Assembly (NCBI GenBank): GCA_044866775.1
Contig: JBIOUG010000174.1
Coordinates: 951 to 64,950 of the forward strand
Source: Thermoanaerobaculia bacterium
Lineage (GTDB): Bacteria; Acidobacteriota; Thermoanaerobaculia; Multivoradales; UBA5704
DNA: 64,000 nt
Reading direction: 5' to 3'
Numbering within the stretch: position 1 is the first letter of the stretch; each line of letters opens with the position of its first letter. Positions 3,779-46,355 of this stretch are shown piece after piece. A program made the translations under genes and the position numbers. Under the pieces are notes generated by a model. The model was not told where the DNA came from and made no database searches. It worked only from the letters and a program-made list of their open reading frames with translations.

Positions 3779-5323
<1,545 letters not shown>

Positions 5324-11600: not shown

Positions 11601-13421
11601 TCAGCGGTACGCGGCGGCCTGGATCCCGTACAGCTCGGCGTATTGCCCGCCCTCGGCCATGAGCTCGTCGTGGGTGCCGAACTCGACGAGGCGGGCGCCG
11701 TCGAGGACGACGATGAGGTCCGCCATGCGCACGGTGGAGAAACGGTGGGAGACGAGGATCGTGATGCGCCCATCCTCGCCGTCGTCGCCGCGGCGGGCGG
11801 CGGCGGCGTAGCGCTCGAACAGCGCGTGCTCGGTCTCGGCGTCCAGCGCCGCGGTGGGCTCGTCGAGCACCAGCAGCAGCGGGCGGTCGCGCATGAAGCC
11901 GCGCGCGAGGGCGAGCTTCTGCCACTGGCCGAACGACACCTCGACGCCCCCCGGCCAGGTGGGGCCGAGCTGCGTCTCGAGGCCCGACGCCAGGCCCGCG
12001 ACGACGTCGCCGGCGCCGGCGCGGTCGACGGCCGCGACCACGGCGGGCTCGTCGTCCAGCCGCGGCACGTCGCCGACCCCGACGGTCTGACGCGCCAGGA
12101 GCTCGAAGCGGAAGAAGTCCTGGAAGGCTCCGGCCAGACGCGCGCGCCAGGCGTCGGCGGGCATGCGGGCGAGCGGCGCGCCGTCGACGAGGATGGCGCC
12201 CGACGTCGGCTCGTACAGCTTGGCGAGCAGCTTCACCAGGGTCGTCTTGCCGGCGCCGTTCTCGCCGACCACGGCCACCACCGTGCCGGCGGGCAGCGCC
12301 AGCGAGACGTCGTCGAGGACCAGGCGCGAGGTGCCCGGGTAGGCGAAGGACACGTGCTCGAGGCAGATGCCCTGACGCAGGACCGGCGGCACCGGGAGAT
12401 CGGCCGCGGCGGCGACCGACGCCGCGTAGTCCTCGAGCCAGGCGAGGCGCCTGGAGCCGTCCATCCAGAAGCCGCGCAGGAAGCCGATCTCGCCGACGGT
12501 GGCGCCGACGTAGGACGACAGGCGCGACCCGGCGGCCAGCACGAGCAGCACGGCGCCCGGCGGCGCGGCGAGTCGCCACGCCACGAACACCACGGCGCCG
12601 ACGTAGGCGCCGCCGAACACGGCCCACGCCAGCGTGTACCAGGCGGCGGAGCCCCACCGCGCCGGCGCCACCAGCCCGTACCAGCGCTCCCACGCCGCAC
12701 GGCGCCGGCCTACCAGGCGATCGCCGATGCCGATGACCCGCACTTCCTTGCCCGGCGGCGCGGTGGTGGCGAGCGTGAACAGGTGCCGCGCCAGCCGGCT
12801 CGACTGGGCGCCGCGCTCCTGGGCCACGCGCTCGACCGCCGGCCGCCACGTCGAGGTGAGCACGGTGGGCAGGGCGAAGACCGCGAGCAGCACGAGCGCC
12901 GGGTGGATCGACATCAGCAGCGCCACCGTCACCCCGAGCCGCAGGATCCAGCCGCAGGTCGAGAACAGCGACATGTACATGTGGTCGAGCACGAACACCT
13001 GGTCGCGGAGCATGGCGAGCCGGTCGAGGTACTCGGGCCGCTCATGGTGGGCGATCGTCGCCACCGTCGCCTGGAGGCGGGCGACGTGCGCTTCGAGCGC
13101 GATCGTGACCTTGTCGCGGAAGCGCCGCTGCACCCGGGTGCTGACGGTGTTGAGGAACCACGTCCCGGCGGCCGAGACGCCCAGGCCGACGGCCGCCGCG
13201 CGCACCAGGCCGGGCGCGCCCTCGAGCAGGCCCTTGCCGAGCAGCGCCAGCCACAGCGCGAGCAGCGCATCCGGCAGCGCCGCGAGCTGCGACAGCGCGA
13301 AGGCGGCGACCATCAGCCGCGGTTCGTGGCGGAGGCCGAGCCTGCACAGGCGCCACATCGACGACAGCGCCGGCGGCAGGTCGTCGGCCTTCCGCGCCGC
13401 GTGCCTACGCGAGGACGTCAT
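11601..13421 (-). CDS. ABC exporter, fused TMD-NBD half transporter
   Basis: N-terminal six-TM-like region. Walker A GENGAGKTT, Q-loop/signature region SFGQWQKLALARGF, Walker B LLLVLDEPTAALD, H-loop ILVSHRFSTV. Confidence 0.9.
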   Translation of the reverse strand: MTSSRRHAARKADDLPPALSSMWRLCRLGLRHEPRLMVAAFALSQLAALPDALLALWLALLGKGLLEGAPGLVRAAAVGLGVSAAGTWFLNTVSTRVQRRFRDKVTIALEAHVARLQATVATIAHHERPEYLDRLAMLRDQVFVLDHMYMSLFSTCGWILRLGVTVALLMSIHPALVLLAVFALPTVLTSTWRPAVERVAQERGAQSSRLARHLFTLATTAPPGKEVRVIGIGDRLVGRRRAAWERWYGLVAPARWGSAAWYTLAWAVFGGAYVGAVVFVAWRLAAPPGAVLLVLAAGSRLSSYVGATVGEIGFLRGFWMDGSRRLAWLEDYAASVAAAADLPVPPVLRQGICLEHVSFAYPGTSRLVLDDVSLALPAGTVVAVVGENGAGKTTLVKLLAKLYEPTSGAILVDGAPLARMPADAWRARLAGAFQDFFRFELLARQTVGVGDVPRLDDEPAVVAAVDRAGAGDVVAGLASGLETQLGPTWPGGVEVSFGQWQKLALARGFMRDRPLLLVLDEPTAALDAETEHALFERYAAAARRGDDGEDGRITILVSHRFSTVRMADLIVVLDGARLVEFGTHDELMAEGGQYAELYGIQAAAYR

Positions 13422-15360
13422 AGACCGCGCCTTCCTCGTCCTCGGCGGCGCCGAAGCGCTGCGCCTGCAGGTCGAACATCGCCCGGTAGCGGCCCCGCCG
13501 CGCCATCAGCTCGCCGTGGGTGCCGTGCTCGACGACGCGCCCGTGCTCGAGCACGCAGATGCGGTCCGCATGGCGCACCGTCGAGAAGCGGTGGGAGATG
13601 AGGATCGTCGTGCATTGGCGGCCGGCGTGGCTAGGAGCCCGTCGCGCTGGTCGCGCGACGGACAGCGCTCCTAGCTCGATCGGATACGGCGCGAAAGCTT
13701 TCGCGCCTAGGATGCGGTCGAAGATCTCGGCCTCGCCGCGCACGTCGAGCTGGGCGGTGGGCTCGTCGAGCAGCACCACGCCGGCGCCGCGCTCGACGGC
13801 GCACAGCGCCCGGGCGAGAGCGACCCGCTGCCACTGCCCGCCGGAGAGATCGGTGCCCCCGTCGTAGCCGCGGGCGAGCACGGTGTCGAGGTCGGCCAGG
13901 CCCGCCGCGCCGGCCGCCGCGAGCGCGCCGCGCACGGCGTCGTCCGGCGCGCCCGCCGGAGCGACGTTGTCGCGCAGCGGCAGCTCGAAGCGGACGAAGT
14001 CCTGGAACACGGCGGCCAGGCGCGAGCGCCAGGCGCCGAGGTCGAGGTCGCGCAGGTCGACCCCGTCGACCTCGATGGCGCCGCCCTGCGGGTCGTAGAG
14101 GCGGCAGAGCAGCTTGGCGAGCGTCGTCTTGCCGGCGCCGTTCTGCCCGACGATGGCGAGCGACGACCCGGCGGGGATCGTGAGGTCGAAGCCCTCGAGC
14201 ACCGGCCGGCCGCCGGGGTAGGCGAAGGTGAGGTCGCGAAAGCGCACCTCGCGCGCCGGCAGGCCGGCCGCGGGACGGCGGCCTGGGAGCCCGTCGCGCT
14301 GGGCGCGCGACGGAAAGCGCTCCCCGGATCGATCAGAGCCCGGCGCGAATGCTTTCGCGCCTGGGGGCAGCGCGCCGGCGGTCGCCATCGCCGGCTCGAG
14401 GCGCAGGACGGCGGCCACCGGCGCCGCGGAGCCGTCGAGGGCCCAGTTGAGGCCGCCAAAGGCGATCATCGACGTGCCCACCGCGGCCTGGGCGAAGACG
14501 ACGGCCGCGGCGAGGCTCAGGCGGCCGCCCGCCGCGGCGCCGGCCAGCGACCAGAAGACGGCCAGGTTGGCGCCGAGCACGAGCAACAGGCTCCATAGCA
14601 GCGGCTTCTCGCGCAGCCGCGTCGCCTCGTACTGCAGCGCGTGCAGGCGCGTGCGGCGGTTGACGAAGCGCTCGATGGTCCAGCCGGCGAGGCCGAACAG
14701 GCGCAGCTCCTTGGCGGGCGGCGGGTCGACGGCGAGCCGGTACGCGTAGTCGGCGTCACGCTGCGCGGCGCGCACCTCGTCGGTGTTGCGGTCGTGCCAG
14801 ACCGCGCTCTCGCGCAGCAGCCAGTGAGTCGCCAACCAGGCGCCGGCGAGGGCGATCGGCGCCCACCAGGCCCAGGCGAAGAGCACGACGGCGCAGGCGA
14901 GACCGCCGATCATCTCGACCAGGCCGGAGGCGATGAAGTCCATCGAGATCGTCAGCGGCGGACCGGTCATGCCGAGGTCGAAGTCGCGCGCCACCGTCAG
15001 GTCGCCGGTGAGCTTCGGGTCCTCGAGATGACCCATGCCCGGCGGCCGTACGCAGGCCTCGGTCAGCCGGTCGTACAGCCAGGCGGCGGTGCGGTCGCCG
15101 AGGTTGGCGCTGATCGCCCGGTGGAGCGGGGAGAGGACCTGGAGGAGGACGAAGACGGCGCCGACGAGCGCCAGCGGGCCGGCCAGGCCGTCGCCGCGCT
15201 CGACGGCGCCGACGAGGGCACCCATGGCGAGGGCGAAGATCGCGGGCAGGACGCCGCGCAGGACCAGCGCCGCCCACCAGCCGAGGGCGAGGACGCGATC
15301 GGCCCGCGGCAGGACCGCGAAGAACTTCCACTCGTTGCGCGCGCGCAGGCGGTCGATCAT
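13405..15360 (-). CDS. ABC exporter, fused TMD-NBD half transporter (carries two in-frame repeat-element insertions)
   Basis: Walker A GQNGAGKTT, LSGGQWQRVALARAL, VVLLDEPTAQLD, ILISHRFSTV. It overlaps the downstream partner gene by 17 nt. It carries two 27-aa inserts containing GAKAFAP. Confidence 0.9.
   Translation of the reverse strand: MIDRLRARNEWKFFAVLPRADRVLALGWWAALVLRGVLPAIFALAMGALVGAVERGDGLAGPLALVGAVFVLLQVLSPLHRAISANLGDRTAAWLYDRLTEACVRPPGMGHLEDPKLTGDLTVARDFDLGMTGPPLTISMDFIASGLVEMIGGLACAVVLFAWAWWAPIALAGAWLATHWLLRESAVWHDRNTDEVRAAQRDADYAYRLAVDPPPAKELRLFGLAGWTIERFVNRRTRLHALQYEATRLREKPLLWSLLLVLGANLAVFWSLAGAAAGGRLSLAAAVVFAQAAVGTSMIAFGGLNWALDGSAAPVAAVLRLEPAMATAGALPPGAKAFAPGSDRSGERFPSRAQRDGLPGRRPAAGLPAREVRFRDLTFAYPGGRPVLEGFDLTIPAGSSLAIVGQNGAGKTTLAKLLCRLYDPQGGAIEVDGVDLRDLDLGAWRSRLAAVFQDFVRFELPLRDNVAPAGAPDDAVRGALAAAGAAGLADLDTVLARGYDGGTDLSGGQWQRVALARALCAVERGAGVVLLDEPTAQLDVRGEAEIFDRILGAKAFAPYPIELGALSVARPARRAPSHAGRQCTTILISHRFSTVRHADRICVLEHGRVVEHGTHGELMARRGRYRAMFDLQAQRFGAAEDEEGAVYDVLA
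13631..13710 (+). repeat. ~81-nt double-hairpin interspersed element, copy A (inside ABC exporter CDS, in frame)
   Basis: ctaggagcccgtcgcgctggtcgcgcgacggacagcgctcctag...ggcgcgaaagctttcgcgcctag. It encodes LGAKAFAPYPIELGALSVARPARRAPS between the Walker B region and the H-loop. The paralog 11601..13421 lacks this segment. Confidence 0.85.
14282..14364 (+). repeat. ~81-nt double-hairpin interspersed element, copy B (inside ABC exporter CDS, in frame)
   Basis: Same architecture as copy A, with point differences. It encodes GAKAFAPGSDRSGERFPSRAQRDGLPG in the TMD-NBD linker. Confidence 0.85.
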
Positions 15361-15367
15361 CGGTGCC

Positions 15368-15451
15368 CTAGGCGCGAAAAGCTTTTCGCGCCGTATCCAT
15401 ATGGATTCTAGGAGCGCTGTCCGTCCCGCGCCCAGCGGGACGGGCTCCTAG
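15368..15451 (-). repeat. ~81-nt double-hairpin interspersed element, copy C (intergenic, opposite orientation)
   Basis: Perfect palindrome ggcgcgaaaagcttttcgcgcc, followed by the long imperfect hairpin ggagcgctgtccgtcccgc-gccca-gcgggacgggctcc. It is bounded by ctag. Confidence 0.9.
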
Positions 15452-15531
15452 AGGCGCGAAAAGCCTTCGCGCCGTATCCGGTAGATTCCAGGAGCGCTGT
15501 CCGTCCCGCGAACAGCGGGACGGGCTCCTAG
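15452..15531 (-). repeat. ~81-nt double-hairpin interspersed element, copy D (intergenic, tandem to copy C)
   Basis: It immediately follows copy C, with the same two hairpins and a few substitutions. Confidence 0.9.
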
Positions 15532-15564
15532 GCTACCAGCGCTGAAAGGCGGCGGAGCAACGAG

Positions 15565-16866
15565 ATGAGGGCCCGGCGCGCGGCGATCGGCCTCGCCGCC
15601 CTGTTGCTGCTCGGCGCCGCCGGGTGGCTCCTGCTGCGCCGGCCGGCGCGGCCGCCGGTCGCGGCGCGGCTGTCGGTGGCGGGTGCGCTGGGCGGGCCGG
15701 CGGAGGCGGGGTTCGCGCGGGCGCTCGCGCCGCGCTCGTTCGCCTTTCCCGCCGACCACGGGCCGCACCCGGCGTTCCGCACCGAGTGGTGGTACTTCAC
15801 CGGCAACCTGGAGACCGAGGAGCCCGTCCCGCTCTTCGCGGGACGGACTGCGCTCCTCGGATCGATTGGATACGGCGCGAAAGCCTTCGCGCCTCGTCGG
15901 GGCGGGCGGCGGTTCGGGTACCAGCTCACCTTCTTCCGCAACGCCCTGGCGCCGCGGGCGGCGGCGCGCGCCTCGCGCTGGGCGGCGCGCCAGGTCTTCC
16001 TCGCGCACTTCGCGGTGACCGATCCGGGTGCCGGGCGCTTCCTCGCCTGCGAGCGCTTCCGCCGCGAGGCGCTGGGGCTGGCGGGCGCCCGCGCGGTTCC
16101 GTTTCGCGTCTGGCTGGATCGCTGGTCGGCGGCGTCGGCCGCACCGGCGGCGGCGGCCGTCGGTGACCAGACCTTCCCGCTGCGGCTGCGCGCCGCCGCC
16201 GAGGACGTCGCCCTCGATCTCACGCTCGCGAGCGGCAAGCCGCCGGTCCTCCAGGGCGAGCGCGGCCTCTCGCGCAAGGGGTCGGCCCCCGGGCAGGCCT
16301 CGTACTACTACTCCCTCACCCGCCTGCCCACCACCGGCCGGCTGCGCCTCGACGGCCGCACCTGGGCGGTGCGCGGCGCCTCGTGGATGGACCGCGAGTG
16401 GAGCACCAGCTCGCTCTCGCCGGGCCAGGTCGGGTGGGACTGGCTGGCGCTGCAGCTCGCCGACGGGCGCGAGCTGATGCTCTACCGGCTGCGCCTCCGC
16501 GGCGGCGGCGCGGATCCGGCGAGCGGCGGCGCCCTCGTGGCGCGCGACGGCACCGCCACGATCCTCGGGCTGGACGACGCCGCGGTCGAGGTCCTCGCCA
16601 CCTGGGAGAGCCCGGCCGGCGGCCGCTACCCGGCGCGCTGGCGGGTGCGGGTCCCGGCGGTCGGGCTGGACCTCGTCGTGCGGCCGCTGCTCGCCGATCA
16701 GGAGCATCGCGGTACCTTCCGCTACTGGGAAGGGGCGGTCGAGGCGGCCGGGACCTCACGCGGGACGCCGGCCGGCGGCCGCGGCTACGTCGAGCTGACG
16801 GGCTACGCCGACGGCGCGCCGGCGCCGGAGCGGCTCGGGGGTCGTCAAACAGCAAATTTCAGGTAG
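15565..16866 (+). CDS. AttH/CrtC-like (lipocalin-like hydratase family) protein, carries one in-frame repeat-element insertion
   Basis: N-terminal TM/signal segment. The family hallmark HPAFRTEWWYFTGNL ... FGYQLTFFR is interrupted by a 27-aa insert containing GAKAFAP. Confidence 0.75.
   Translation: MRARRAAIGLAALLLLGAAGWLLLRRPARPPVAARLSVAGALGGPAEAGFARALAPRSFAFPADHGPHPAFRTEWWYFTGNLETEEPVPLFAGRTALLGSIGYGAKAFAPRRGGRRFGYQLTFFRNALAPRAAARASRWAARQVFLAHFAVTDPGAGRFLACERFRREALGLAGARAVPFRVWLDRWSAASAAPAAAAVGDQTFPLRLRAAAEDVALDLTLASGKPPVLQGERGLSRKGSAPGQASYYYSLTRLPTTGRLRLDGRTWAVRGASWMDREWSTSSLSPGQVGWDWLALQLADGRELMLYRLRLRGGGADPASGGALVARDGTATILGLDDAAVEVLATWESPAGGRYPARWRVRVPAVGLDLVVRPLLADQEHRGTFRYWEGAVEAAGTSRGTPAGGRGYVELTGYADGAPAPERLGGRQTANFR
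15817..15896 (+). repeat. ~81-nt double-hairpin interspersed element, copy E (inside AttH-like CDS, in frame)
   Basis: gaggagcccgtcccgctcttcgcgggacggactgcgctcc...ggcgcgaaagccttcgcgcc. It encodes EEPVPLFAGRTALLGSIGYGAKAFAPR. Confidence 0.85.
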
Positions 16867-22011: not shown

Positions 22012-25000
22012 ATGGGAACGACGACTGATCAGCCGTCGACGCACGTCGTCATCTCGGCCCCGAGCCAGTGGGGGCAGCAGGCCTGCGATCACCTCCTCCA
22101 TCGTGCAGTCGCTGATGGCGGCAGGGTAACCCTCATCGTCCCGCGCCGCGAGCGGAAACGCTTCGAGAGCTGGCCACCGACCATCCAGGAGTGGGAGGAC
22201 CAGCCGAGCCTCAAGGCGGTCCTCGAGCAGCGCCGCGCCTCGGGACGACCGATCGACTACGTCTACGACGATCAGTGCAACCACCTCGCCGCAGAATTGA
22301 TCTCGCAGCAGACTGCGCGCACGCATCTGACGGTGGGATACGTCACATCGAACGCCGACGAGCATTTCAACCACGCGGACTACCTCCTCCGCTTCTGTGA
22401 GCGGGTGCTGGTCGAGAAGCCGGTCTCACGGCTGTTCGACGAGATCCGTCCTGATGGCAAGTTTCCCCGCCTCGCCGCGAGCCTCCCGCCGGGGCGGTTC
22501 CTGGCGACCGCAGAGCACTTCCTGTTTCGGCCGGGAGTCACCAGGGCATGGCGGTCGGGTACCCTCCAGGGCTTTTTCGAGCGGCACCAGGAGTGTGATC
22601 TCCACTATGAGTTCCAGTTCGAGGAGCCGGAAGGCCGCGACGATCCCGCGCAGCGCCTCGGCGCCTACCAGGACGGGAGCATCCTCGACATCCTCGCCAC
22701 TCATGGTCTCGGGCCGGTGGCTTGCCTGCTGCTGCCGTTCGTCGCGGCGGCGCGAACCGATTTCTACACCGGCCTCGTGTGGCGACACGTTCGAAGCTGG
22801 CAGGCGAAGGACCCGCGTGGCGGGATGCTCAAGATCCCCGTGCTCGCCGAGACGGCGGCAGAGCTCCACGGCCGCCTGAGCCTGTCGCCGACACGCACGC
22901 TCCACCTCCACCTCCGCAGCGCCAAAGGGTGCCGCGAGCGCTTGCGTTTCTTCAGGTTCTACTGCCCCGCCGGGAAGTGTCGCAGTTGCTTACCAGGCGT
23001 GCGCGAGGACCGGGTGAGGGACCTCGCGGCTCGTCCTTCGCCGCAGGGGACGAGCGATCTTTTCGTCGCGGTGTCTCTGGGATCGGCCGGCTACACGGTT
23101 TTCGACTACAGCGACGCCACGAGTCTCGATCGCCTCTTCGTCGAGGTCGCTGGCGGGTATCTCTCGGACCGCCGAGGCAGCAGCGTCTCCGAGGCGGCGA
23201 ATGCGCAGGCCGCGATGCTCGACGCGCTCCTGCAGCCGGACTTCGGAGAGGAGGAGAAGCGACGCTTCGTGCCGGTCGAGACCGCCTGCCAGATCGTGCG
23301 CGCGGGCTTGCGGGCGCAGGGCGTCGCCTTCAACCGCGCGCGGGAGCCCTACTACGCCTGGGGCGAGGGACCGAAGTGGCCGAGCGAGCCGGCGAGCCAG
23401 ACGCGGAAGAGCAAGCTCGTACAGCTACACAGCCTGACGCCCGGTATCGACCAGCTCGCGGACGTCCTGCGGCTGCGGGGCGATCGGCGCAGACAGCGAC
23501 CCTACCACCGGGTCGTCACGGTGCTGGGCCCGGAAGGCGCGGGCAACAGCGACATCGCCCGCGCTTTGAGGGACTCAGAGCTCGCGGCCGAGAAGATCGA
23601 CATCCCGCGCGACGAGGATTGGGAGCAAGGCAGCTCGGCGGCGGCCGAGTCGCACCCGCCGAGCGGCTTCACGCTCGAGATGGTGCTGCGAAAGCTGGCG
23701 TCCAAGCTCCACCTCTCCCTGACGACCGCCCGCCGGCCGGCCGAAGAGCTGCCGGCGTATCTGCGGAAGGTCAGGCAGACGCTCACCGGCACGGATCTCC
23801 TCCTCTTCAACGGTGTGGACCGCCTGTCGGCCAATGACTGGCACGTGCTCGTGCGCATCCTCAACGAGCTTCCCGCCTCCTATCGGATGATCTTCGTCAC
23901 CAAGACCTGGGAGCGGGCGGGCGGCTTCGTCGTCCGCACCGAGGAGTTGATGAACTCGCTCCCCGGCCTGCTCGAAGGCACGCGGGCGTTACCCCTCGGG
24001 GATTACTTCCCCACTCCGGTCCCGGCCGGCGGCAGGCTCCGGAAGCAGTACGAGCGTCTATTCCGCGAGGAGGTCCTCCCGTTCAGCCGCGACAACCTCA
24101 CGGTACGCCAGCAGGTCGCCTCCTGGGTCTTCTACATGGCACTCCCTGCGGCGTTGAGAAAAGCGGGTCTGACGCTGCCCGCGAGCCACTGGTGGGATCT
24201 GCGGCCGTACCCCGCGCAACCTCAGTGGGACCTGGTGCGGGAGTTCATCCAGGACGAGATCGCCAGTCTGGACCTACCCAGCCCGCTGACGGCCAACCCC
24301 GAGGCGTTCCTGGATCGGGTCAGCCGCCTATGCCTCGCCATGGTGAGTGACGCCCAACGCCAGGCGGTTCGCAGCCTGGCGACTGTCTCGGGAGAGATTC
24401 CCAAGCGCCTGGTCGACGAGGTCTCGCCTGGATTGTTCGACGAGCTGCGCGCGCTGCGGCCGGCGCGGGCGCTGTTCGAGATCGTCACGGAGGACCGTGC
24501 GCTCCTCTTCCCGCGGGTGCGCAAAGCCGTGCTCGAAAGCGAACCCGAAGATCTCGACAAGCTGCGCACGGAGATCGAGCGGCGCCGCCTCCTCCTGTCG
24601 CTTCGCCGTCTCCGCCTCGCCGCCCCCGACCGGGCGGTGACACGCGCCCTCGGCGAACAGATGATCCGGCTCCTCTATGGCGCGTCGCTCGAGACCCTCA
24701 ACCTCGACGGAACTCCGTTCGAGTCGCTGTGCATGGAGCTGGTCGAAGAGCTAGAGACCTCAAGTGACCTGCACGGCGATCAAGCCGCCGGGTCTCTGAT
24801 CGAGCTGCTGACAGACGAAGCCACTCTCACCAGGACGAATCTCGGGCTTCTCGCACGAGCCCGATTGACGCGGCTCAAAGGGTGGCTGCTCCGGGGCGCC
24901 GCAGGGGTGGACCCGGCACAGTTGCAAAACGTGGCGAAGGTCCTCGATCACGCTTATGCGCTGGCGCAGCATTGCGTAGAGCGCAAGGACGGCCTCGAGC

Positions 25001-25935
25001 GAACGCCGGATCTGCGCCGTGCCGGCGCCGATCGGTGTCCGCTTCCCGGGGAGGTCGGTCGCGACGGGTCGAGCCCGAGCCTCGAGACGCTGGTGTTGAC
25101 GACCCAAGGTCGGGTGTTCGCTGGCATGGTGCAGAGCCGCTGGTGGCACCGCCTGCTCGGTCTCAAGACGACGCCCCACAGCAAGCCGCAGGATTGGGAG
25201 GCGTTCGTGACGCCGCGGCTCGAAGTCGGCACCGCCGGCCCCGGCGCCCTTAGAAGAACCCTTTGGGAGCTCTGCGAGGTCGGCATCGAGCAGCGAGGTC
25301 CGCGACCGCCCGAGCTGTCGCCGAAGGTTTTCGCCATCGCTCTACGCGCCCTCGCGCTCTATGTCGCGGGCCGCGAGACCGGGCCTGACCCGTTGCTCGC
25401 GGCGCGCCTCTGCCTGCGAGCGGCGAAAGAGAACGCGGGGAACGAGGACTGCCAAGCCCGCAACCTGATGGAGGCCGCTCTCTTCCTATCCGACGGAACC
25501 AAGCTCGCCGACGAATGGGACCTCGCCCCTGCAGGAACCAGCCTCACCAGAACGTACCTGGGCGACCGAGCGAAGGAGATCTTCGATCAGGAGCGTGATG
25601 TCCATCCCGGACTCGCCCCATATATCGACCTGCTCGATCTCATGGTCGAGTCAGGGTCCGCAGCGCAGCTCCTCGCCCATCGGAAAGAGCTCAAGCGTCT
25701 GGAGGCAGCGTTCGAGCGCACGGGTGATGGGTACTTCGGGCAGCTCGTTCATGACCTGAGAGCGGCGGCCAGCGGCTCGGCAAGACGATCCCGTCTTCCA
25801 GTCGGTTCTGGGATCACGGACCCGAAGCCAGAGGCGACCGCGAACGTCGTCAACCGTCCAGCGCCAGCCGCAGCACCTCGGCCACGTGCAGCGCGCGGCG
25901 ACCGGTCGCCTGGCGGATCTGCTCGCGGCAACTGA
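22012..25935 (+). CDS. 1307-aa multidomain protein: Gfo/Idh/MocA-like oxidoreductase-fold N-domain + STAND/NB-ARC-like NTPase with degenerate Walker A + long alpha-helical repeat C-terminal region
   Basis: The ATG at 22012 follows an AT-rich stretch. The EKP motif (RVLVEKPVSR, nt 22414-22422) sits in a Rossmann-like context. The P-loop-like VVTVLGPEGAGNSD (nt 23527-23550) has Asn where Lys is expected. The Walker-B-like DLLLFNGVD lies at nt 23794-23820. About 600 aa of helical sequence follow. Confidence 0.8.
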   Translation: MGTTTDQPSTHVVISAPSQWGQQACDHLLHRAVADGGRVTLIVPRRERKRFESWPPTIQEWEDQPSLKAVLEQRRASGRPIDYVYDDQCNHLAAELISQQTARTHLTVGYVTSNADEHFNHADYLLRFCERVLVEKPVSRLFDEIRPDGKFPRLAASLPPGRFLATAEHFLFRPGVTRAWRSGTLQGFFERHQECDLHYEFQFEEPEGRDDPAQRLGAYQDGSILDILATHGLGPVACLLLPFVAAARTDFYTGLVWRHVRSWQAKDPRGGMLKIPVLAETAAELHGRLSLSPTRTLHLHLRSAKGCRERLRFFRFYCPAGKCRSCLPGVREDRVRDLAARPSPQGTSDLFVAVSLGSAGYTVFDYSDATSLDRLFVEVAGGYLSDRRGSSVSEAANAQAAMLDALLQPDFGEEEKRRFVPVETACQIVRAGLRAQGVAFNRAREPYYAWGEGPKWPSEPASQTRKSKLVQLHSLTPGIDQLADVLRLRGDRRRQRPYHRVVTVLGPEGAGNSDIARALRDSELAAEKIDIPRDEDWEQGSSAAAESHPPSGFTLEMVLRKLASKLHLSLTTARRPAEELPAYLRKVRQTLTGTDLLLFNGVDRLSANDWHVLVRILNELPASYRMIFVTKTWERAGGFVVRTEELMNSLPGLLEGTRALPLGDYFPTPVPAGGRLRKQYERLFREEVLPFSRDNLTVRQQVASWVFYMALPAALRKAGLTLPASHWWDLRPYPAQPQWDLVREFIQDEIASLDLPSPLTANPEAFLDRVSRLCLAMVSDAQRQAVRSLATVSGEIPKRLVDEVSPGLFDELRALRPARALFEIVTEDRALLFPRVRKAVLESEPEDLDKLRTEIERRRLLLSLRRLRLAAPDRAVTRALGEQMIRLLYGASLETLNLDGTPFESLCMELVEELETSSDLHGDQAAGSLIELLTDEATLTRTNLGLLARARLTRLKGWLLRGAAGVDPAQLQNVAKVLDHAYALAQHCVERKDGLERTPDLRRAGADRCPLPGEVGRDGSSPSLETLVLTTQGRVFAGMVQSRWWHRLLGLKTTPHSKPQDWEAFVTPRLEVGTAGPGALRRTLWELCEVGIEQRGPRPPELSPKVFAIALRALALYVAGRETGPDPLLAARLCLRAAKENAGNEDCQARNLMEAALFLSDGTKLADEWDLAPAGTSLTRTYLGDRAKEIFDQERDVHPGLAPYIDLLDLMVESGSAAQLLAHRKELKRLEAAFERTGDGYFGQLVHDLRAAASGSARRSRLPVGSGITDPKPEATANVVNRPAPAAAPRPRAARGDRSPGGSARGN
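25850..25932. repeat. Right direct repeat of the island (functional 3' end of the YdiJ-like gene)
   Basis: Partner of 21509-21592, at an offset of 4338 nt. Confidence 0.8.
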
Positions 25936-43040: not shown

Positions 43041-46000
43041 ATGCACGAGACCGCCCGCCCGGCCGCGGCGATCGAGGACCGCTACCCGCTCGCCCCGCTC
43101 CAGCAGAGCATGCTGGAAGAGAGCCTCGCCCACGCCGCGGCGGGAGGCCGCGTCGGGCTGCTGCAGCTCATCTGGAACCTGAAGGAGCCGCTCGATCTCA
43201 CCGCCTTCGAGCGCGCCTGGGGGCGGGTCGCCGACCGCCACCCGATCCTGCGCACCCGCCTCGTCTGGAGCGGGCAGCTCGAGCCGTTCCAGGAGGTGGT
43301 CCGCGGCGCTCGGCCGCCCTTCGCGACCCGCGACTGGAGCAGTCTCGCGCCCGAGGAGCAGGAGCGGCGCCTCCAGGCGTTTCTCGTCGAGGACCGCGAG
43401 CAGGGGCTGGCGCTCGACCGGGCGCCGCTGCTACGGGTGACGGTGGCGCGCCTCGCGCCCGATCGCCACCGCGTCGTCCTGACGCTCCATCACACCACCT
43501 TCGACGGCCGCACCTTGCTCGCGCTGGTGCAGGAGGTCTTTGCCTTCTACGACGCCGGGCGCGCCGGCGGCGAGCCCGAGCTGCCGGCCCCGGGTCTCTA
43601 CCGCGCCTATGTCGAGTGGCTCGCCCGGCAAGACCGGCGGCGCGCCGCCGAGTTCTGGCGCGCGGCCCTCGCCGGCATCCACGAGCCGACGCCGCTCGGT
43701 ATGGACCGCCCGGTACCCGCCCGTGCCGGGCGCGCCGACGCCGCCGCGCCGGCGGTCTGGTTCTACCGCGACTTCCAGGTCTGGCTGAGCGAGGAGACGA
43801 CGAATGCGCTGCTCGGCCTCGCGCGCGAGCTCGACGTGACGCTCAACACGCTCTTGCTCGGCGCCTGGTCGCTCCTGCTGTCCGGCGCGAGCGGCCGGCG
43901 GGACGTCCTCTTCGGCGTGGTGCGCACTCACCGCGGCGCGCTGCCCAACGGCGCGGCGATTCTCGGGCCGGTGATGAACTCCGTTCCCTTCCGCGCCACC
44001 GTGGACCCCGAGCCGGACGTCGCCGGCTGGCTGCGCGGCCTGCGCGCCCACTGGCTGGCGATGCGCACCGGGGACTTCGCGAGCCCGGCGGAGATCCGCG
44101 ACTGGAGCGAGCTCGATCCGCGCGCCCCCTTCTTCGAGACGCTGGTGCTCTTCGAGACCCACGAGCTGACCGAGCGCTTGCGCCGGCTCGGGCCGGCATG
44201 GCAGAACCGCTCCTTCCGCTTCGTCCGCCAGTCGCGGGTGCCGCTCAGCATCTACGGTTACCTCGAGCGGCGGCTGGCCCTCAAGGTCATCTTCGATCCC
44301 GAACGCTTCGAGGACGCGACCATGCGCCGCCTCCTCGGTCACCTGCAGGCCGTCCTCGAGGCCATGCCGGCCGCCGCCGGACGGCGCCTGGCGGAGCTGC
44401 CGCTGCTCACTGCCGCCGAGCGCCATCAGCTCCTGGTCGAGTGGAACGACACGGCGGGCGCCGCCGGGGCGAGCCCTGTCCATCGCCGCTTCGAGGAGCA
44501 GGCGCGGCGGGCGCCCCAGGGCGTCGCCGCGGCCGATCCGGGCGGCGCCGTCACCTACGGCGCGCTCGACCGCAGCGCCAACCAGTTGGCCCGGCTGCTC
44601 GCGGCGCGCGGCGTGGGCCCCGGGACGATCGTCGGCGTGCTGCTCGAACGCTCGGTCCTGGAGGTGGAGGCCCTGCTCGCCGTGCTCAAAGCCGGAGGCG
44701 CTTACCTGCCGCTCGAGGGCTCGGCGCCCGAGCGGGTGGAGGCGATCCTCGAGGACGCGGGCGCCGGCCTGCTGTTGACGCTCTCGACACTCCTGCCGCC
44801 TCTGCGCTTCGCCGCCGCGCGCACGCTCTGCCTCGACCACGTCACGGCCGAGCTCCGCGCTCAGCCCGCCACGCCGCCGCCGGGCGAGACGCTGCCGGAG
44901 CAGCCGGCCTACGTCATCTACACCTCCGGCTCGACCGGCCGTCCCAAGGGCGTGGTCGTCCCACACCGCGGCCTGGCGAACCTCGTCGACTGGCACCTGG
45001 CGGCTTTCGGCGTCTCGCCGGCCGACCGGGCGAGCCGCCTTGCGGGGCTCGGCTTCGACGCCTCGGTCTGGGAGCTGTGGCCGAACTGGAGCGCCGGCAC
45101 CGCCGTGCTGCTGCCGCCGGAAGCGGTCCGCTCCGACCCCGAGGCGCTGCGCGACTGGCTGCTCGCCGAAGGGGTCACGGTCGCCTTCGCGCCGACGCCG
45201 ATGGCCGAGCGGCTGCTCGCGCTGCGCTGGCCGGCCGCCACGCCGCTGCGCCTCCTCCTCACCGGTGGCGACGCCCTGCACGGCCGCCCGCCGGCCGGCC
45301 TCCCCTTCCGCCTGGTCAACAACTACGGCCCGACCGAGAACAGCGTCGTCGCCACCTCGGGCGCCGTCATTCCGGAGGCTGCAGCAAGCGCCGAGAGCGG
45401 CCGCCCGCCCGCGATCGGCCGCCCGATCCGGAACGTGCGCGTCCAGCTCCTCGACCCGGACTTCCGGCCGGTGCCGATCGGCACGCGCGGCGAGCTGTGC
45501 ATCGCCGGCGCCGGCCTCGCGGACGGCTATCTCGGCCGTCCGGAGCTGACGGCGGCGAGCTTGGTCCCCGATCCCCACGGCGCGCCCGGCGCGCGCCTGT
45601 ACCGCACCGGCGACCTCGCCCGCTTCCTCCCGGACGGCGAGATCGAGTTCCTGGGCCGCCGCGACGCCCAGATCAAGCTCCGCGGTTTCCGCATCGAGCC
45701 CGGCGAGATCGAAGCGGCCCTCGGCCGCCATCCCGCCGTCCAGGCATGCGCGGTGGTGGCCCGCGCCGGCGAGCGAGCGGATGACAGGCAGCTCATCGCC
45801 TTCGCCGTAACCAGCCTCGCCAGCGCCGTTGCGGACGCCGAGCTGTCGGCCTTCCTGCGCGGCAAGCTCCCGCCCTACATGGTTCCGGCGCTCTACGTCC
45901 GGCTCGACGCCCTGCCCGTGAACGCCAGCGGCAAGGTGGACCGCAGGGTGCTCGAAGAGCGGGCGGCGGGCGACGACGACGGTGCGCGGGAGCACGTGCC

Positions 46001-46355
46001 ACCGGCCACCCCACTTGAGCGGCTGCTCGCCCAGATCTGGGAGGAGGGGCTGGGGCACGGGCCGGTCGGCCTACACGACGACTTCTTCGCCCTGGGCGCT
46101 CACTCCTTCCACGTCATGCAGGTCGCGGGGGCGCTCCGCGACCTCTTCGTCCGCGACGTCCCGGCGGACCTCGTCTTCCTCGCCTCGACGGTGGCGCGGC
46201 TGATCGACCAGCTCTTCCCGTCGTCCGAGGAGCGCGACGCGGCGGAGGCGATTGCGGTGCGGCTCCTCGACGAGAGCGACGGCGCGACCGGGCCACTCTC
46301 GGCAACCCCCGCGCGCGGCAGCGGCCGGGCGCGTTTCCAAGGCGAAGGTCCATGA
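43041..46355 (+). CDS. Single-module non-ribosomal peptide synthetase, C-A-T (no thioesterase/reductase)
   Basis: Condensation HHTTFDGRT. Adenylation AYVIYTSGSTGRPKGV, NNYGPTE, YRTGDLAR and GRRDAQIKLRGFRIEPGEIE. Carrier domain DDFFALGAHSF. Confidence 0.9.
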   Translation: MHETARPAAAIEDRYPLAPLQQSMLEESLAHAAAGGRVGLLQLIWNLKEPLDLTAFERAWGRVADRHPILRTRLVWSGQLEPFQEVVRGARPPFATRDWSSLAPEEQERRLQAFLVEDREQGLALDRAPLLRVTVARLAPDRHRVVLTLHHTTFDGRTLLALVQEVFAFYDAGRAGGEPELPAPGLYRAYVEWLARQDRRRAAEFWRAALAGIHEPTPLGMDRPVPARAGRADAAAPAVWFYRDFQVWLSEETTNALLGLARELDVTLNTLLLGAWSLLLSGASGRRDVLFGVVRTHRGALPNGAAILGPVMNSVPFRATVDPEPDVAGWLRGLRAHWLAMRTGDFASPAEIRDWSELDPRAPFFETLVLFETHELTERLRRLGPAWQNRSFRFVRQSRVPLSIYGYLERRLALKVIFDPERFEDATMRRLLGHLQAVLEAMPAAAGRRLAELPLLTAAERHQLLVEWNDTAGAAGASPVHRRFEEQARRAPQGVAAADPGGAVTYGALDRSANQLARLLAARGVGPGTIVGVLLERSVLEVEALLAVLKAGGAYLPLEGSAPERVEAILEDAGAGLLLTLSTLLPPLRFAAARTLCLDHVTAELRAQPATPPPGETLPEQPAYVIYTSGSTGRPKGVVVPHRGLANLVDWHLAAFGVSPADRASRLAGLGFDASVWELWPNWSAGTAVLLPPEAVRSDPEALRDWLLAEGVTVAFAPTPMAERLLALRWPAATPLRLLLTGGDALHGRPPAGLPFRLVNNYGPTENSVVATSGAVIPEAAASAESGRPPAIGRPIRNVRVQLLDPDFRPVPIGTRGELCIAGAGLADGYLGRPELTAASLVPDPHGAPGARLYRTGDLARFLPDGEIEFLGRRDAQIKLRGFRIEPGEIEAALGRHPAVQACAVVARAGERADDRQLIAFAVTSLASAVADAELSAFLRGKLPPYMVPALYVRLDALPVNASGKVDRRVLEERAAGDDDGAREHVPPATPLERLLAQIWEEGLGHGPVGLHDDFFALGAHSFHVMQVAGALRDLFVRDVPADLVFLASTVARLIDQLFPSSEERDAAEAIAVRLLDESDGATGPLSATPARGSGRARFQGEGP

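Follow-up and report, generated by a model that had tools for sequence, protein, structure and literature searches.

A two-hairpin palindromic repeat with in-frame genic copies in Thermoanaerobaculia-type Acidobacteriota

Five copies of a 78–86-nt element lie within 2.3 kb (13630–15897) of the 64,000-nt stretch of Thermoanaerobaculia DNA analysed here (the window), and none elsewhere in it. Its best explanation, to which we assign a probability of roughly 75%, is a small non-autonomous, structure-defined mobile repeat of Thermoanaerobaculia-type Acidobacteriota which works like a Rickettsia palindromic element (RPE) or an intragenic REP and whose coding copies are filtered by selection. The element is defined by its structure rather than by long terminal inverted repeats, and it lands mostly between genes. 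Intragenic copies are kept only if their net length is a multiple of three, if TAG, TGA and TAA are mutated or out of frame, and if the 26–27 added residues fall into a tolerant loop or linker. The window holds three such in-frame survivors in two genes under purifying selection.

The positions of the copies and of the genes concerned are listed in Table 1. Searching the window with the hairpin-1 pattern returned exactly five matches (13634–13671 +, 14286–14323 +, 15411–15448 −, 15491–15528 −, 15819–15856 +), where shuffled sequences gave an expectation of 0.00. The hairpin-2 palindrome was matched three times over 20 nt (0.02 expected) and is present in the intergenic copies C and D as 21–22-nt versions. 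A covariance model built from 25 copies found no sixth copy in the 64 kb (best other match, E = 0.26); copy D is not a separate cmsearch entry because it overlaps the higher-scoring copy C. Single-strand folding, proposed as a check with the original prediction, gave the same two-hairpin structure in all five copies (−28 to −33 kcal/mol; z-scores −3.9 to −6.9). The predicted cluster of five copies in 2.3 kb was thus recovered, and the predicted placement of every copy relative to the genes was correct. The window copies are 79–87% identical to each other and up to 91–92% identical to copies in other genomes; five copies only this similar within 2.3 kb would not be predicted by simple random transposition.

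Table 1. Copies of the element and associated genes in the 64,000-nt window.
Feature	Position	Strand	Evidence	Context
Copy A	13630..13711	+	pattern match; covariance model 96.4 bits; fold z-score −5.3	in ABC exporter gene (gene on opposite strand)
Copy B	14282..14365	+	pattern match; covariance model 99.2 bits	TMD-NBD linker of ABC exporter
Copy C	15367..15452	−	pattern match; covariance model 91.9 bits; fold z-score −6.9	intergenic, tandem with D
Copy D	15449..15532	−	pattern match with 0 mismatches; fold	intergenic, tandem with C, 80-nt period
Copy E	15815..15897	+	pattern match; covariance model 97.7 bits; fold z-score −6.8	CrtC/AttH-like gene, same strand
ABC exporter (fused TMD-NBD, 651 aa)	13405..15360	−	dN/dS vs L021 = 0.24	host of copies A and B
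CrtC/AttH-like lipocalin protein (‘predicted secreted hydrolase’, 433 aa)	15565..16866	+	dN/dS vs L021 = 0.27	host of copy E
Paralogous ABC exporter partner gene	11601..13421	−	no element copy	internal control

Each unit consists of an 18-bp bulged hairpin (hairpin 1), a spacer, and a second hairpin formed by an 8-bp perfect palindrome. Hairpin 1 reads nCTAGGAGC-CCGTCsCGC-loop-GCGsGACGG-(5-nt bulge)-GCTCCTAGn, the spacer of 12–15 nt reads ATTGATyGGAGCC or ...GGATAC, and the palindrome of hairpin 2 reads GGCGCGAA-loop-TTCGCGCC. Apart from a common GGAGCCCG(G/T)CGCG start, the sequences of the two hairpins are unrelated, and the element has a G+C content of ~70%. CTAG occurs at three places of the unit (left end, after hairpin 1, right end), is the boundary tetranucleotide in 17–19 of 25 copies (GTAG being found at locus L008 only) and, where it terminates one unit of a tandem array, is common to the next. 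While the order of hairpin, spacer and palindrome was as originally described, CTAG is not the mere boundary that it had been taken for, since the left CTAG, with one further base, belongs to the hairpin-1 stem as its outer part. Pairing of the four bases to the left of GGAGC with the element interior is seen in 24, 23, 24 and 19 of 27 copies, which fits a stem belonging to the element or a guide-type pairing. The element ends share at most GCTAGG/CCTAGC, a terminal inverted repeat of ≤6 nt, and each end is a hairpin of its own.

Covarying positions support hairpin 1: pair 15/27 occurs as CG (16 copies) or GC (nine), pair 4/43 as AU (19) or GC (four), and pair 1/46 as GC (nine), CG (eight) or UA (two). 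In hairpin 1, 98.3% of cells are paired, compared with 30–55% in slid controls, and the observed covariation was reached by none of 500 shuffles. Subfamilies with a G or C stem and a TAC or GCCC spacer are common to several genomes. In copy E the left TAG is changed to GAG, which removes the stop, and the internal CTA to CTC, which is synonymous and re-establishes the base pair. Such compensating changes keep the pairing in coding copies and may point to a function for the host and not to selfishness alone.

Alignment of orthologues and DNA gave a net insertion of 78 nt or 26 codons for copy A (13631–13708) and for copy B, and of 81 nt or 27 codons for copy E, whereas the CTAG-to-CTAG lengths are 80, 82 and 81 nt. 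The 27 codons that had been proposed for every coding copy therefore hold for copy E, and copies A and B add 26 each. The inserts are translated as LGAKAFAPYPIELGALSVARPARRAPS (A), PGAKAFAPGSDRSGERFPSRAQRDGLPG (B) and EEPVPLFAGRTALLGSIGYGAKAFAP (E), and the palindrome reads GAKAFAP in both orientations, as predicted. In canonical intergenic copies with a CTAAC loop each of the six frames contains a stop; in the coding copies the relevant stop triplets are gone. By alignment to the P-gp NBD, copy A falls behind the helix that follows the D-loop and ahead of the H-loop strand, at a position where orthologues read ILAAS/T-R(Q/H)CT. Copy E lies between EWWYFTGNL and GYQLTFFR of its host protein. 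The predicted location of the inserts in surface loops or linkers is supported by sequence alignment to P-gp/MsbA NBDs, the AlphaFold model being too poor to contribute. Walker A, the signature motif, Walker B and the H-loop of the ABC exporter are all intact, and from their dN/dS ratios (Table 1) both host genes are judged to be still functional and under purifying selection. The paralogous exporter gene lacks the insert, in agreement with the original prediction.

All three coding copies are, by comparison with orthologues, to be regarded as secondary insertions, and here too the earlier proposal was borne out. Among the best 120 matches to the ABC exporter, 118 are neither the window's own protein nor P0002, and most of these have 597–603 aa (versus 651 aa). 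Fifteen of the 118 were aligned, and both window inserts are absent from all of them; apart from the window's own protein, P0002 (87% identity) is the only match among the best 120 with element copies. The 27-aa segment is likewise absent from 16 of 16 aligned AttH orthologues, and in the window protein the Pfam CrtC domain is broken after profile position ~12 but is continuous in a relative. The refuting condition set with the original prediction, the same segment in orthologues of unrelated lineages, was thus negative in these alignments. That the 26–27-aa segments are ancestral, or the repeats an assembly artefact, is refuted by these alignments and by the 78- and 81-nt gaps in the contig described below, and has a negligible chance of being right. 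Nothing specific speaks for this reading; the segment that P0013 and P0102 carry at the corresponding linker position (LRQGFGPSASSGPSRAESRDGEPG) is distantly similar, but these proteins are among the most distant of the aligned set (80–81% identity in A1), and their DNA gives no covariance-model score. An artefact is further opposed by the independent assembly of the element in GenBank MAGs, JGI metagenomes and the window.

Filled and empty sites were compared using L021, a ~95%-identical syntenic metagenome contig. L021 is empty at sites A (78-nt gap) and E (81-nt gap), has two tandem in-frame copies at site B (78-nt period) where the window has one, carries one hybrid copy at the intergenic site versus two in the window (80-nt gap), and contains a partial copy at 4372–4430 that is absent from the window. 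By this alignment the element has been recently gained or lost. At site A the empty allele reads GGCGGCG|AGGAT and the filled allele GGCGTGG[CTAGG...GCGCCT]AGGAT. TA and CTAG are both missing from the two empty sites, the sequences left of the two comparable insertions are unlike each other without a conserved tetranucleotide target, and a clean target-site duplication or a conserved target is not seen in either filled/empty pair, the coding junctions having extra substitutions and site E being ambiguous. The common CTAG or TA at tandem junctions and the identical variant flanks at some copies (CTGG/CTGG, CCAG/CCAG) would fit target duplication.

These junctions bear on the view that the unit does not transpose at all and has spread only locally, by replication slippage, hairpin template switching or gene conversion, the cluster being a by-product of a lineage-specific rearrangement of the exporter pair and AttH. 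The tandem copy-number changes have periods of 78–80 nt, at the right junction of site A an AGG(A) microhomology matches the beginning of the next unit, and no target-site duplication was seen in the filled/empty pairs and no transposase among the window ORFs scanned. Moreover, relatives (L027, L029) have the AttH gene directly after a MacB permease, the exporter pair is confined to the window/L021 lineage, and copies C and D lie at its edge. Purely local processes cannot, however, explain the occurrence of the unit at about 20 unrelated loci in other genomes, and the window copies are no closer to each other than to copies elsewhere. We therefore consider this view highly improbable.

The about 20 loci, all with different flanks, comprise eight in three Acidobacteriota/Thermoanaerobaculia MAGs and 12 contigs in soil metagenomes. 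As the same unit recurs at unrelated loci of three or more further MAGs and of three soil metagenome data sets, its original description as an interspersed element holds. Most copies are intergenic and often tandem, with arrays at 6 or 7 of the about 20 loci. At L006 an in-frame copy lies inside a fused MFS-spermidine-synthase protein, between its domains, and at L005 an in-frame copy forms a C-terminal tail. Among about 30 copies, the four internal intragenic sites all keep the frame and contain no stop, yet the majority of copies lie between genes, which argues for survivorship and not for an element designed for in-frame insertion. A complete 5.46-Mb chromosome gave four exact-pattern matches, a count that would miss diverged copies, and 83 kb of syntenic DNA from relatives contained no copies. 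Copy number thus looks low, unlike that of classical REPs or RPEs.

It is also conceivable, if unlikely, that the element is a host-beneficial structured motif (an operator, an RNA stability or translation element, or a stop plus Shine-Dalgarno coupling module), spread and kept for its function. On that view the cluster at the divergent ABC/AttH promoter would have a regulatory role, and the hairpin would be the reason why coding copies persist. Hairpin 2 forms a perfect operator-type palindrome of 20–22 nt; copies C and D fill 163 of the 204 nt between the divergent genes, with 7 nt between the right end of copy C and the start codon of the ABC exporter (GCGCCTAGGGCACCG-ATG); and the clustering, with five copies in 2.3 of 64 kb, is extreme. 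Both hairpin-1 strands start with TAGGAG, a stop codon plus Shine-Dalgarno-like motif, at L004 and L008 the left stem contains the stop codon of the upstream gene, and a ribosome-binding site and ATG follow the right end at L011 and L018. The compensating changes that keep the stem paired in coding copies, including a synonymous one, belong here as well, although recognition of the hairpin by a transposase would lead one to expect covariation just as much. A Shine-Dalgarno sequence inside an 18-bp stem would, however, be poorly accessible, no sigma-70-like promoter or intrinsic terminator was found in or around copies C and D, and no Rfam family matched. Presence differs at five sites between ~95%-identical genomes, which fits a dispensable element, and the host genes and flanks in other genomes are unrelated.

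Under the preferred reading of a mobile repeat, the element, having no coding capacity of its own, would be copied or moved in trans. An enzyme encoded by the host or by an IS may recognise the hairpins, the most natural candidate being of the single-strand-DNA type (IS200/IS605-RAYT), and arrays may expand and contract by recombination or slippage. The inserted peptides presumably have no function of their own. A Pfam scan of 13 large ORFs of the window revealed no transposase, TnpA or TnpB genes were not seen near element copies, and at no locus do the two hairpins flank a gene. Rfam holds no match of any kind and no match to the sequence was found in the literature searched, so that the family appears undescribed, as first suspected; it would be a new family of a known kind, in-frame palindromic repeats being already known from Rickettsia and other bacteria.

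The parallel with RPEs that had been drawn holds in the sense of ‘works like’, not as family membership. As summarised in PMC10969869 and PMC3733652, RPE-1 to RPE-10 (Ogata et al. 2000) are short palindromic repeats found in frame inside unrelated genes, ~100–150 bp long and AT-rich, of obligate intracellular Alphaproteobacteria, with nearly half of the copies of some families inside ORFs. The likeness extends to the lack of own coding capacity, a peptide at tolerated positions, functional host genes and additional intergenic copies, and no dedicated transposase is known for RPEs. Insertion in frame with the host ORF preserved is seen in copies A, B and E, at L006 and in L021. The present element differs in its length (78–86 nt), in its ~70% G+C, in belonging to free-living soil Acidobacteriota and in being mostly intergenic, often tandem and apparently low-copy. 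Composition and consensus suggest no sequence resemblance, and membership by sequence is very unlikely.

RAYT tyrosine transposases mobilise REPs and BIMEs, among which are intragenic GTAG- and CGTC-tagged REPs (Di Nocera et al. 2013, PMC3733652). Like REPs and BIMEs, the element has G+C-rich imperfect hairpins recognised as structure, composite units in clusters or arrays, occasional in-frame genic copies, no evident target duplication and, in hairpin 1, a CGTC...GACG core. REPs, however, measure 20–40 nt and usually number hundreds per genome, while the element has ~80 nt, two different hairpins and the few chromosomal matches given above. REPs are tagged by a 5' GTAG, or by CGTC followed by an 8–9-bp stem starting with A/T pairs; the tetranucleotide here is CTAG. 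Neither this boundary nor the ~80-nt two-hairpin unit fits a GTAG-type REP, a 20–40-nt imperfect palindrome with a conserved GT(A/G)G tetranucleotide at its 5' end. REPs of this type number tens to hundreds per genome and come with a RAYT gene that the repeats flank. CGTC-type REPs have a CGTC tag at the end, an 8–9-bp stem with two A/T pairs first, a 4–5-nt loop and a short CCA-like tail (PMC3733652). The element does not fit this type either: CGTC is paired with GACG inside a 9-bp all-G/C inner stem, with neither A/T first pairs nor a CCA tail.

MITEs are defined by terminal inverted repeats matching those of an IS and by target duplication, of TA (Correia, IS630-type) or of CTAG/YTAR (IS5-type). 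The ≤6 nt shared by the element ends fall short of the ~10 bp or more of a classical IS-derived MITE, and the two empty sites differ in lacking TA and CTAG. MITE-like are its non-autonomy, a length below 300 bp, stable folds, strain-level presence/absence and occasional translation in host proteins. In-frame MITE fusions include Coxiella QMITE1 (PMC5896051), and also ERIC, Anabaena MITEs and Correia elements.

From PATEs derived from IS200/IS605, which insert 3' of a fixed tetra- or pentanucleotide, the element differs in that its hairpins are mutually unrelated and no conserved tetranucleotide stands left of the two comparable insertions. It resembles them in its subterminal hairpins at both ends and in lacking terminal inverted repeats and an evident target duplication, and its flank-to-interior pairing is reminiscent of the guide/cleavage-site pairing of IS608.

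The original prediction of five copies of one repeat unit was upheld by direct reading of positions 13300–16300 and by repeat and pattern searches. The pattern for hairpin 1, the long bulged GGAGC...GCTCC stem, gave five matches in the window against 0.00 expected from shuffles, and the 20-nt palindrome of hairpin 2 gave three against 0.02; in the intergenic copies C and D the palindrome is present in 21–22-nt versions. No sixth copy was found in the 64 kb with a covariance model built from 25 copies, the best other match having E = 0.26. When folded as single strands, all five copies adopt the same structure (−28 to −33 kcal/mol; z-scores −3.9 to −6.9), in which hairpin 1 (18 bp, with a loop and a 3′-side bulge of 5 nt each) is separated by a spacer of 12–15 nt from a perfect hairpin 2 of 8–9 bp. 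The canonical unit contains three CTAGs, one at its left end, one immediately 3′ of hairpin 1 and one at its right end, and the start of the second module resembles that of the first (GGAGCCCGtCGCG for the second as against GGAGCCCGgCGCG).

Table. Copies of the repeat element and neighbouring genes (window positions)
Feature	Position	Strand	Remarks
Copy A	13630–13711	+	repeat and pattern searches
Copy B	14282–14365	+	repeat and pattern searches
Copy C	15367–15452	-	repeat and pattern searches
Copy D	15449–15532	-	repeat and pattern searches
Copy E	15815–15897	+	repeat and pattern searches
ABC exporter, fused TMD-NBD	13405–15360	-	hosts copies A and B; NBD motifs all intact
Paralogous exporter partner	11601–13421	-	without any copy; covariance model finds none
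CrtC/AttH-type lipocalin protein	15565–16866	+	hosts copy E

Copies A and B are translated from the strand opposite to the element and copy E from the element's own strand; in all three the palindrome is read as GAKAFAP, as had been foreseen for either orientation, and the expected absence of the element from the paralogous exporter gene held as well. The inserts were placed in the exporter by sequence alignment to solved NBDs. Copy A lies in the short loop between the post-D-loop helix and the H-loop β-strand (equivalent in P-gp: ...ALDKAR-GRTTIVVAHR), and copy B in the TMD-NBD linker. An AlphaFold2 model from a 17-sequence alignment (mean pLDDT 43.9) was unusable beyond showing both inserts as coil.

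For comparison with homologues, the window's own protein and P0002, the exporter encoded on the syntenic contig L021, were set aside from the 120 best matches. Most of the remaining 118 are 597–603 aa long. P0002 has 651 aa like the window protein, with 87% identity, and is the only one among these homologues with copies of the element. At site A the orthologues read ILAA(S/T)R(Q/H)CT where the window protein has 29 residues, and at the linker site they have ~4 residues against 30. Copies A and B thus add 26 codons each in this alignment, so that the 27 codons proposed for every coding copy apply to copy E (27 residues) only. In the AttH-like protein the 27 residues are missing from 16 of 16 aligned orthologues, whose sequence at this point is NLE-AA-GGRRFGYQ. 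The Pfam CrtC domain, uninterrupted in a relative, begins in the window protein at profile position 13, after the insert. Since the segments are missing from the aligned orthologues of both proteins, P0002 apart, copies A, B and E are secondary insertions, as predicted. In annotation, such elements lengthen proteins and break Pfam domains, and genes called in MAGs can thereby gain spurious extensions at the N or C terminus.

Other inserts were seen in the exporter alignment. Two distant orthologues, P0013 and P0102, carry a different insert of ~28 aa, LRQGFGPSASSGPSRAESRDGEPGSDPP (L022, 1457–1582), which matches copy B in linker position, orientation and frame. At the DNA level a CCGTCCC...GGGACGG hairpin and a GCCGAAGCCTTGGC palindrome are present, but there is no covariance-model score; the insert represents a relative that has diverged from the element, or else an old copy in decay. 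Common descent with copy B is disfavoured, the proteins being among the most distant in the alignment and the DNA failing the covariance model; more probably, a related element inserted independently into a linker that is permissive. P0066, P0093, P0047, P0019, P0053, P0055 and P0014 have further short lineage-specific inserts (alignment columns 101–116 and 396–475), for example AAPPAFAASKTNVGAQ in the same linker and SSTVGQGALSIVEGR or LSTVAQG in a TMD loop. These may represent additional in-frame repeat families in Acidobacteriota.

L021, an 11.5-kb JGI contig that is ~95% identical to the window in the exporter gene, provided filled and empty sites. The pairwise DNA alignment shows that L021 lacks the element at site A (78-nt gap) and at site E (81-nt net gap). 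The linker site holds two tandem in-frame copies with a 78-nt period in L021 vs one in the window, and the intergenic region one copy vs two (80-nt gap). A partial copy comprising the 3′ half lies between two genes of L021 (4372–4430) and is absent from the window. Gain, loss and copy-number change of the element are therefore recent. In L014 (~250–290) the 5′ arm of hairpin 1 is followed, with nothing in between, by the 3′ arm of hairpin 2; partial and internally deleted copies in L014 and L021 show that the elements decay by internal deletion. As near-identical strains differ at five sites in ~6 kb, metagenome reads could capture exact insertion or excision junctions, and these could help identify the mobilising enzyme.

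Comparison of the window with L021 shows purifying selection on both host genes (dN/dS 0.24 and 0.27). Copy A lies in the catalytic core, a conserved part of the ABC ATPase, and the exporter, still under such selection, is a natural test of the insertion tolerance of this fold.

Six-frame translation showed stops in most frames of canonical intergenic copies and in all six frames of the CTAAC-loop subfamily, the sources being the three CTAGs, the TGA of ATTGAT and the TAA of the loop. GAKAFAP is the sole reading of the palindrome that is closed by neither flanking CTAG in either orientation, and because no other frame is left unclosed, every coding copy (A, B, E, both L021 copies, L006 and L005) uses it. 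The relevant stops are lost in coding copies; GGG or TGG has replaced the internal TAG in B, L021 and L006, where the left flank has changed to CTGG. Net insertion lengths of 78, 78 and 81 nt differ from the CTAG-to-CTAG lengths of 80, 82 and 81 nt, so that the frame results from variable junctions or spacers and not from a fixed unit length. About 17 of 24 sites are intergenic, though the genomes are mostly coding. Together, these observations bear the mark of purifying selection on a promiscuous element and not of an element built for in-frame insertion. In L006 a fused protein of >1,100 aa has an in-frame copy between its MFS domain and its spermidine-synthase domain, and in L005 one forms the C-terminal tail of a PMT_2 glycosyltransferase-like protein; the L001 copy possibly forms an N-terminus.

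One scan of GTDB representative genomes returned eight loci, all in MAGs of Acidobacteriota/Thermoanaerobaculia: four in OY969474.1 (a complete 5.46-Mb chromosome), three in SMAG_U1604 and one in SMAG_U13816. In JGI metagenomes a single scan gave 13 matches on 12 contigs, to which the covariance model added tandem partners. The flanks are unrelated, hence the sites in other genomes are independent. Of ~20 loci, 6 or 7 have tandem arrays. Hairpin 1 stands alone in L012 and, immediately 5′ of the secA start codon, in two related MAGs (L003 and L007). The best AttH matches with a named source are from Thermoanaerobaculia, one of them from SMAG_U1604 at 71% identity, so that the organism of the window very probably belongs to this class. 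No match was obtained in the viral contigs scanned or in a plasmid collection, and there is no evidence for carriage of the element by phages or plasmids. The three encoded peptides, concatenated into an 81-aa query, gave no match in a word-indexed search of 5.8 billion proteins, and an exhaustive phmmer search of 1.84 billion representatives with the 30-aa copy-B peptide gave 0 matches. Neither result bears on the frequency of in-frame copies, both queries being too short and the cluster representatives probably lacking the insert.

No copies were present in 83 kb of syntenic DNA from relatives. Density elsewhere is accordingly low and the five-copy cluster exceptional; if placement were uniform, five copies would share 2.3 kb of the 64 kb with an estimated probability of ~1e-5. 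The window copies are 79–87% identical to one another and no closer than to copies in other genomes, so that the cluster is not a very recent burst of local duplication; an origin of the cluster by local duplication was rejected, the five copies not being each other's closest relatives. Relatives L027 (5753–9526) and L029 (5388–11155) have the genes for histidine kinase, MacB ATPase, MacB permease, AttH and S9 peptidase in this order. In the window (11601–15360) and L021 two exporter genes lie between MacB permease and AttH on the opposite strand. Only the window/L021 lineage has this exporter pair, in which A and B lie and whose edge is occupied by C and D. The element cluster thus falls on a synteny breakpoint and on a lineage-specific insertion or rearrangement of ~3.9 kb. 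No sigma-70-like promoter or intrinsic terminator was found around copies C and D.

Pfam searches revealed no transposase among 13 large ORFs of the window, and a clean target duplication is absent from both filled/empty pairs (sites A and E). The empty allele of site A is GGCGGCG/AGGAT and the filled allele GGCGTGG[CTAGG...GCGCCT]AGGAT, while the comparison is ambiguous at site E. An IS630- or IS5-type MITE was rejected because TA and CTAG models fit neither empty site cleanly. CTAG or TA is shared at tandem junctions and some copies have identical variant flanks, which would fit TA or CTAG duplication; the covariation of flank and interior described below would fit an element-borne stem or IS608-like guide pairing.

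Standard pairs occupy 98.3% of the cells in the 25-copy alignment, against 30–55% in slid controls. Both-sided changes occur at five pairs and none of 500 shuffles reached the observed covariation score. Hairpin-1 columns were largely fixed by the search pattern, which makes their invariance uninformative, and the informative columns are the unconstrained ones: pair 15/27 (C-G in 16 copies, G-C in 9), pair 4/43 (A-U in 19, G-C in 4), pairs 3/44 and 2/45, and pair 1/46 (G-C in 9, C-G in 8, U-A in 2). Four bases of the left flank beyond GGAGC pair with the interior in 24, 23, 24 and 19 of 27 copies, and further out pairing drops to the ~40% background; the left CTAG and one further base are therefore probably part of the stem. 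In copy E the change of the left TAG to GAG removes an in-frame stop, and a synonymous change of the paired internal CTA to CTC restores the base pair. In copies B and L006, CTGG pairs with CCAG, and in L004 a stop codon within the stem is compensated on the opposite arm.

Compensating changes of this kind could mean that the hairpins are selected even inside coding sequence. We consider it improbable that they reflect function and not recent insertion or subfamily descent. If they did, intragenic copies may remain active substrates of a structure-reading, guide-pairing single-strand-DNA transposition system, or they may act as mRNA structures that tune translation at domain boundaries, namely the TMD-NBD linker, the pre-H-loop position and the start of the lipocalin domain. 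The five-copy cluster, at the edge of a lineage-specific gene insertion, would then mark elements promoting local genome rearrangement.

Ends of the element also overlap gene signals. In L004 (4410–4499) the TAA stop of the upstream gene lies within the left stem (GTAAGGAGC) and the other arm compensates with CTTAC; in L008 (1542–1631) the TAG of the left CTAG ends the upstream ORF. The right end of copy C is 7 nt from the exporter ATG (15360–15375) and is a possible source of its Shine-Dalgarno sequence; hairpin 1 starts with TAGGAG on either strand.

In-frame insertion into many genes is established for RPEs of Rickettsia (PMC10969869), intragenic GTAG- and CGTC-tagged REPs occur in several species, the CGTC REPs without known transposase (PMC3733652), and Coxiella QMITEs form in-frame fusions (PMC5896051). 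The window element lacks defining features of GTAG REPs, of CGTC REPs and of classical MITEs, and host and composition make an RPE very unlikely. No Rfam family was matched at E ≤ 1, and we found no published description of the sequence, nor of such repeats in Acidobacteriota. The original prediction was essentially right, and the finding is real and well supported: the element appears to be a new family, while the phenomenon of in-frame palindromic repeats in genes is already established. It extends in-frame palindromic ‘selfish DNA in genes’, best known from reduced genomes of intracellular bacteria such as Rickettsia and Coxiella, to soil Acidobacteriota that are free-living and G+C-rich and belong to a phylum with hardly described repeats. 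Three points deserve most attention: the compensatory changes that preserve hairpins in ORFs, the clustering at a rearrangement edge and the mobilisation mechanism.

Elsewhere in the window, a single-module NRPS (C-A-T, 1104 aa; 43041–46355), a 1307-aa ORF with no Pfam match (22012–25935) and two short direct repeats between distant genes (28742–28800/31433–31491, 59 nt, 93% identity; 21521–21583/25859–25921, 63 nt, 86% identity) are unrelated to the element. A 125-nt direct repeat (94% identity) occupies 1823–1947, in the 3′ part of a secA-like ORF (1–2118), and 2602–2726; the second copy, 779 nt downstream, lies outside this ORF and is thus a duplicated secA fragment.
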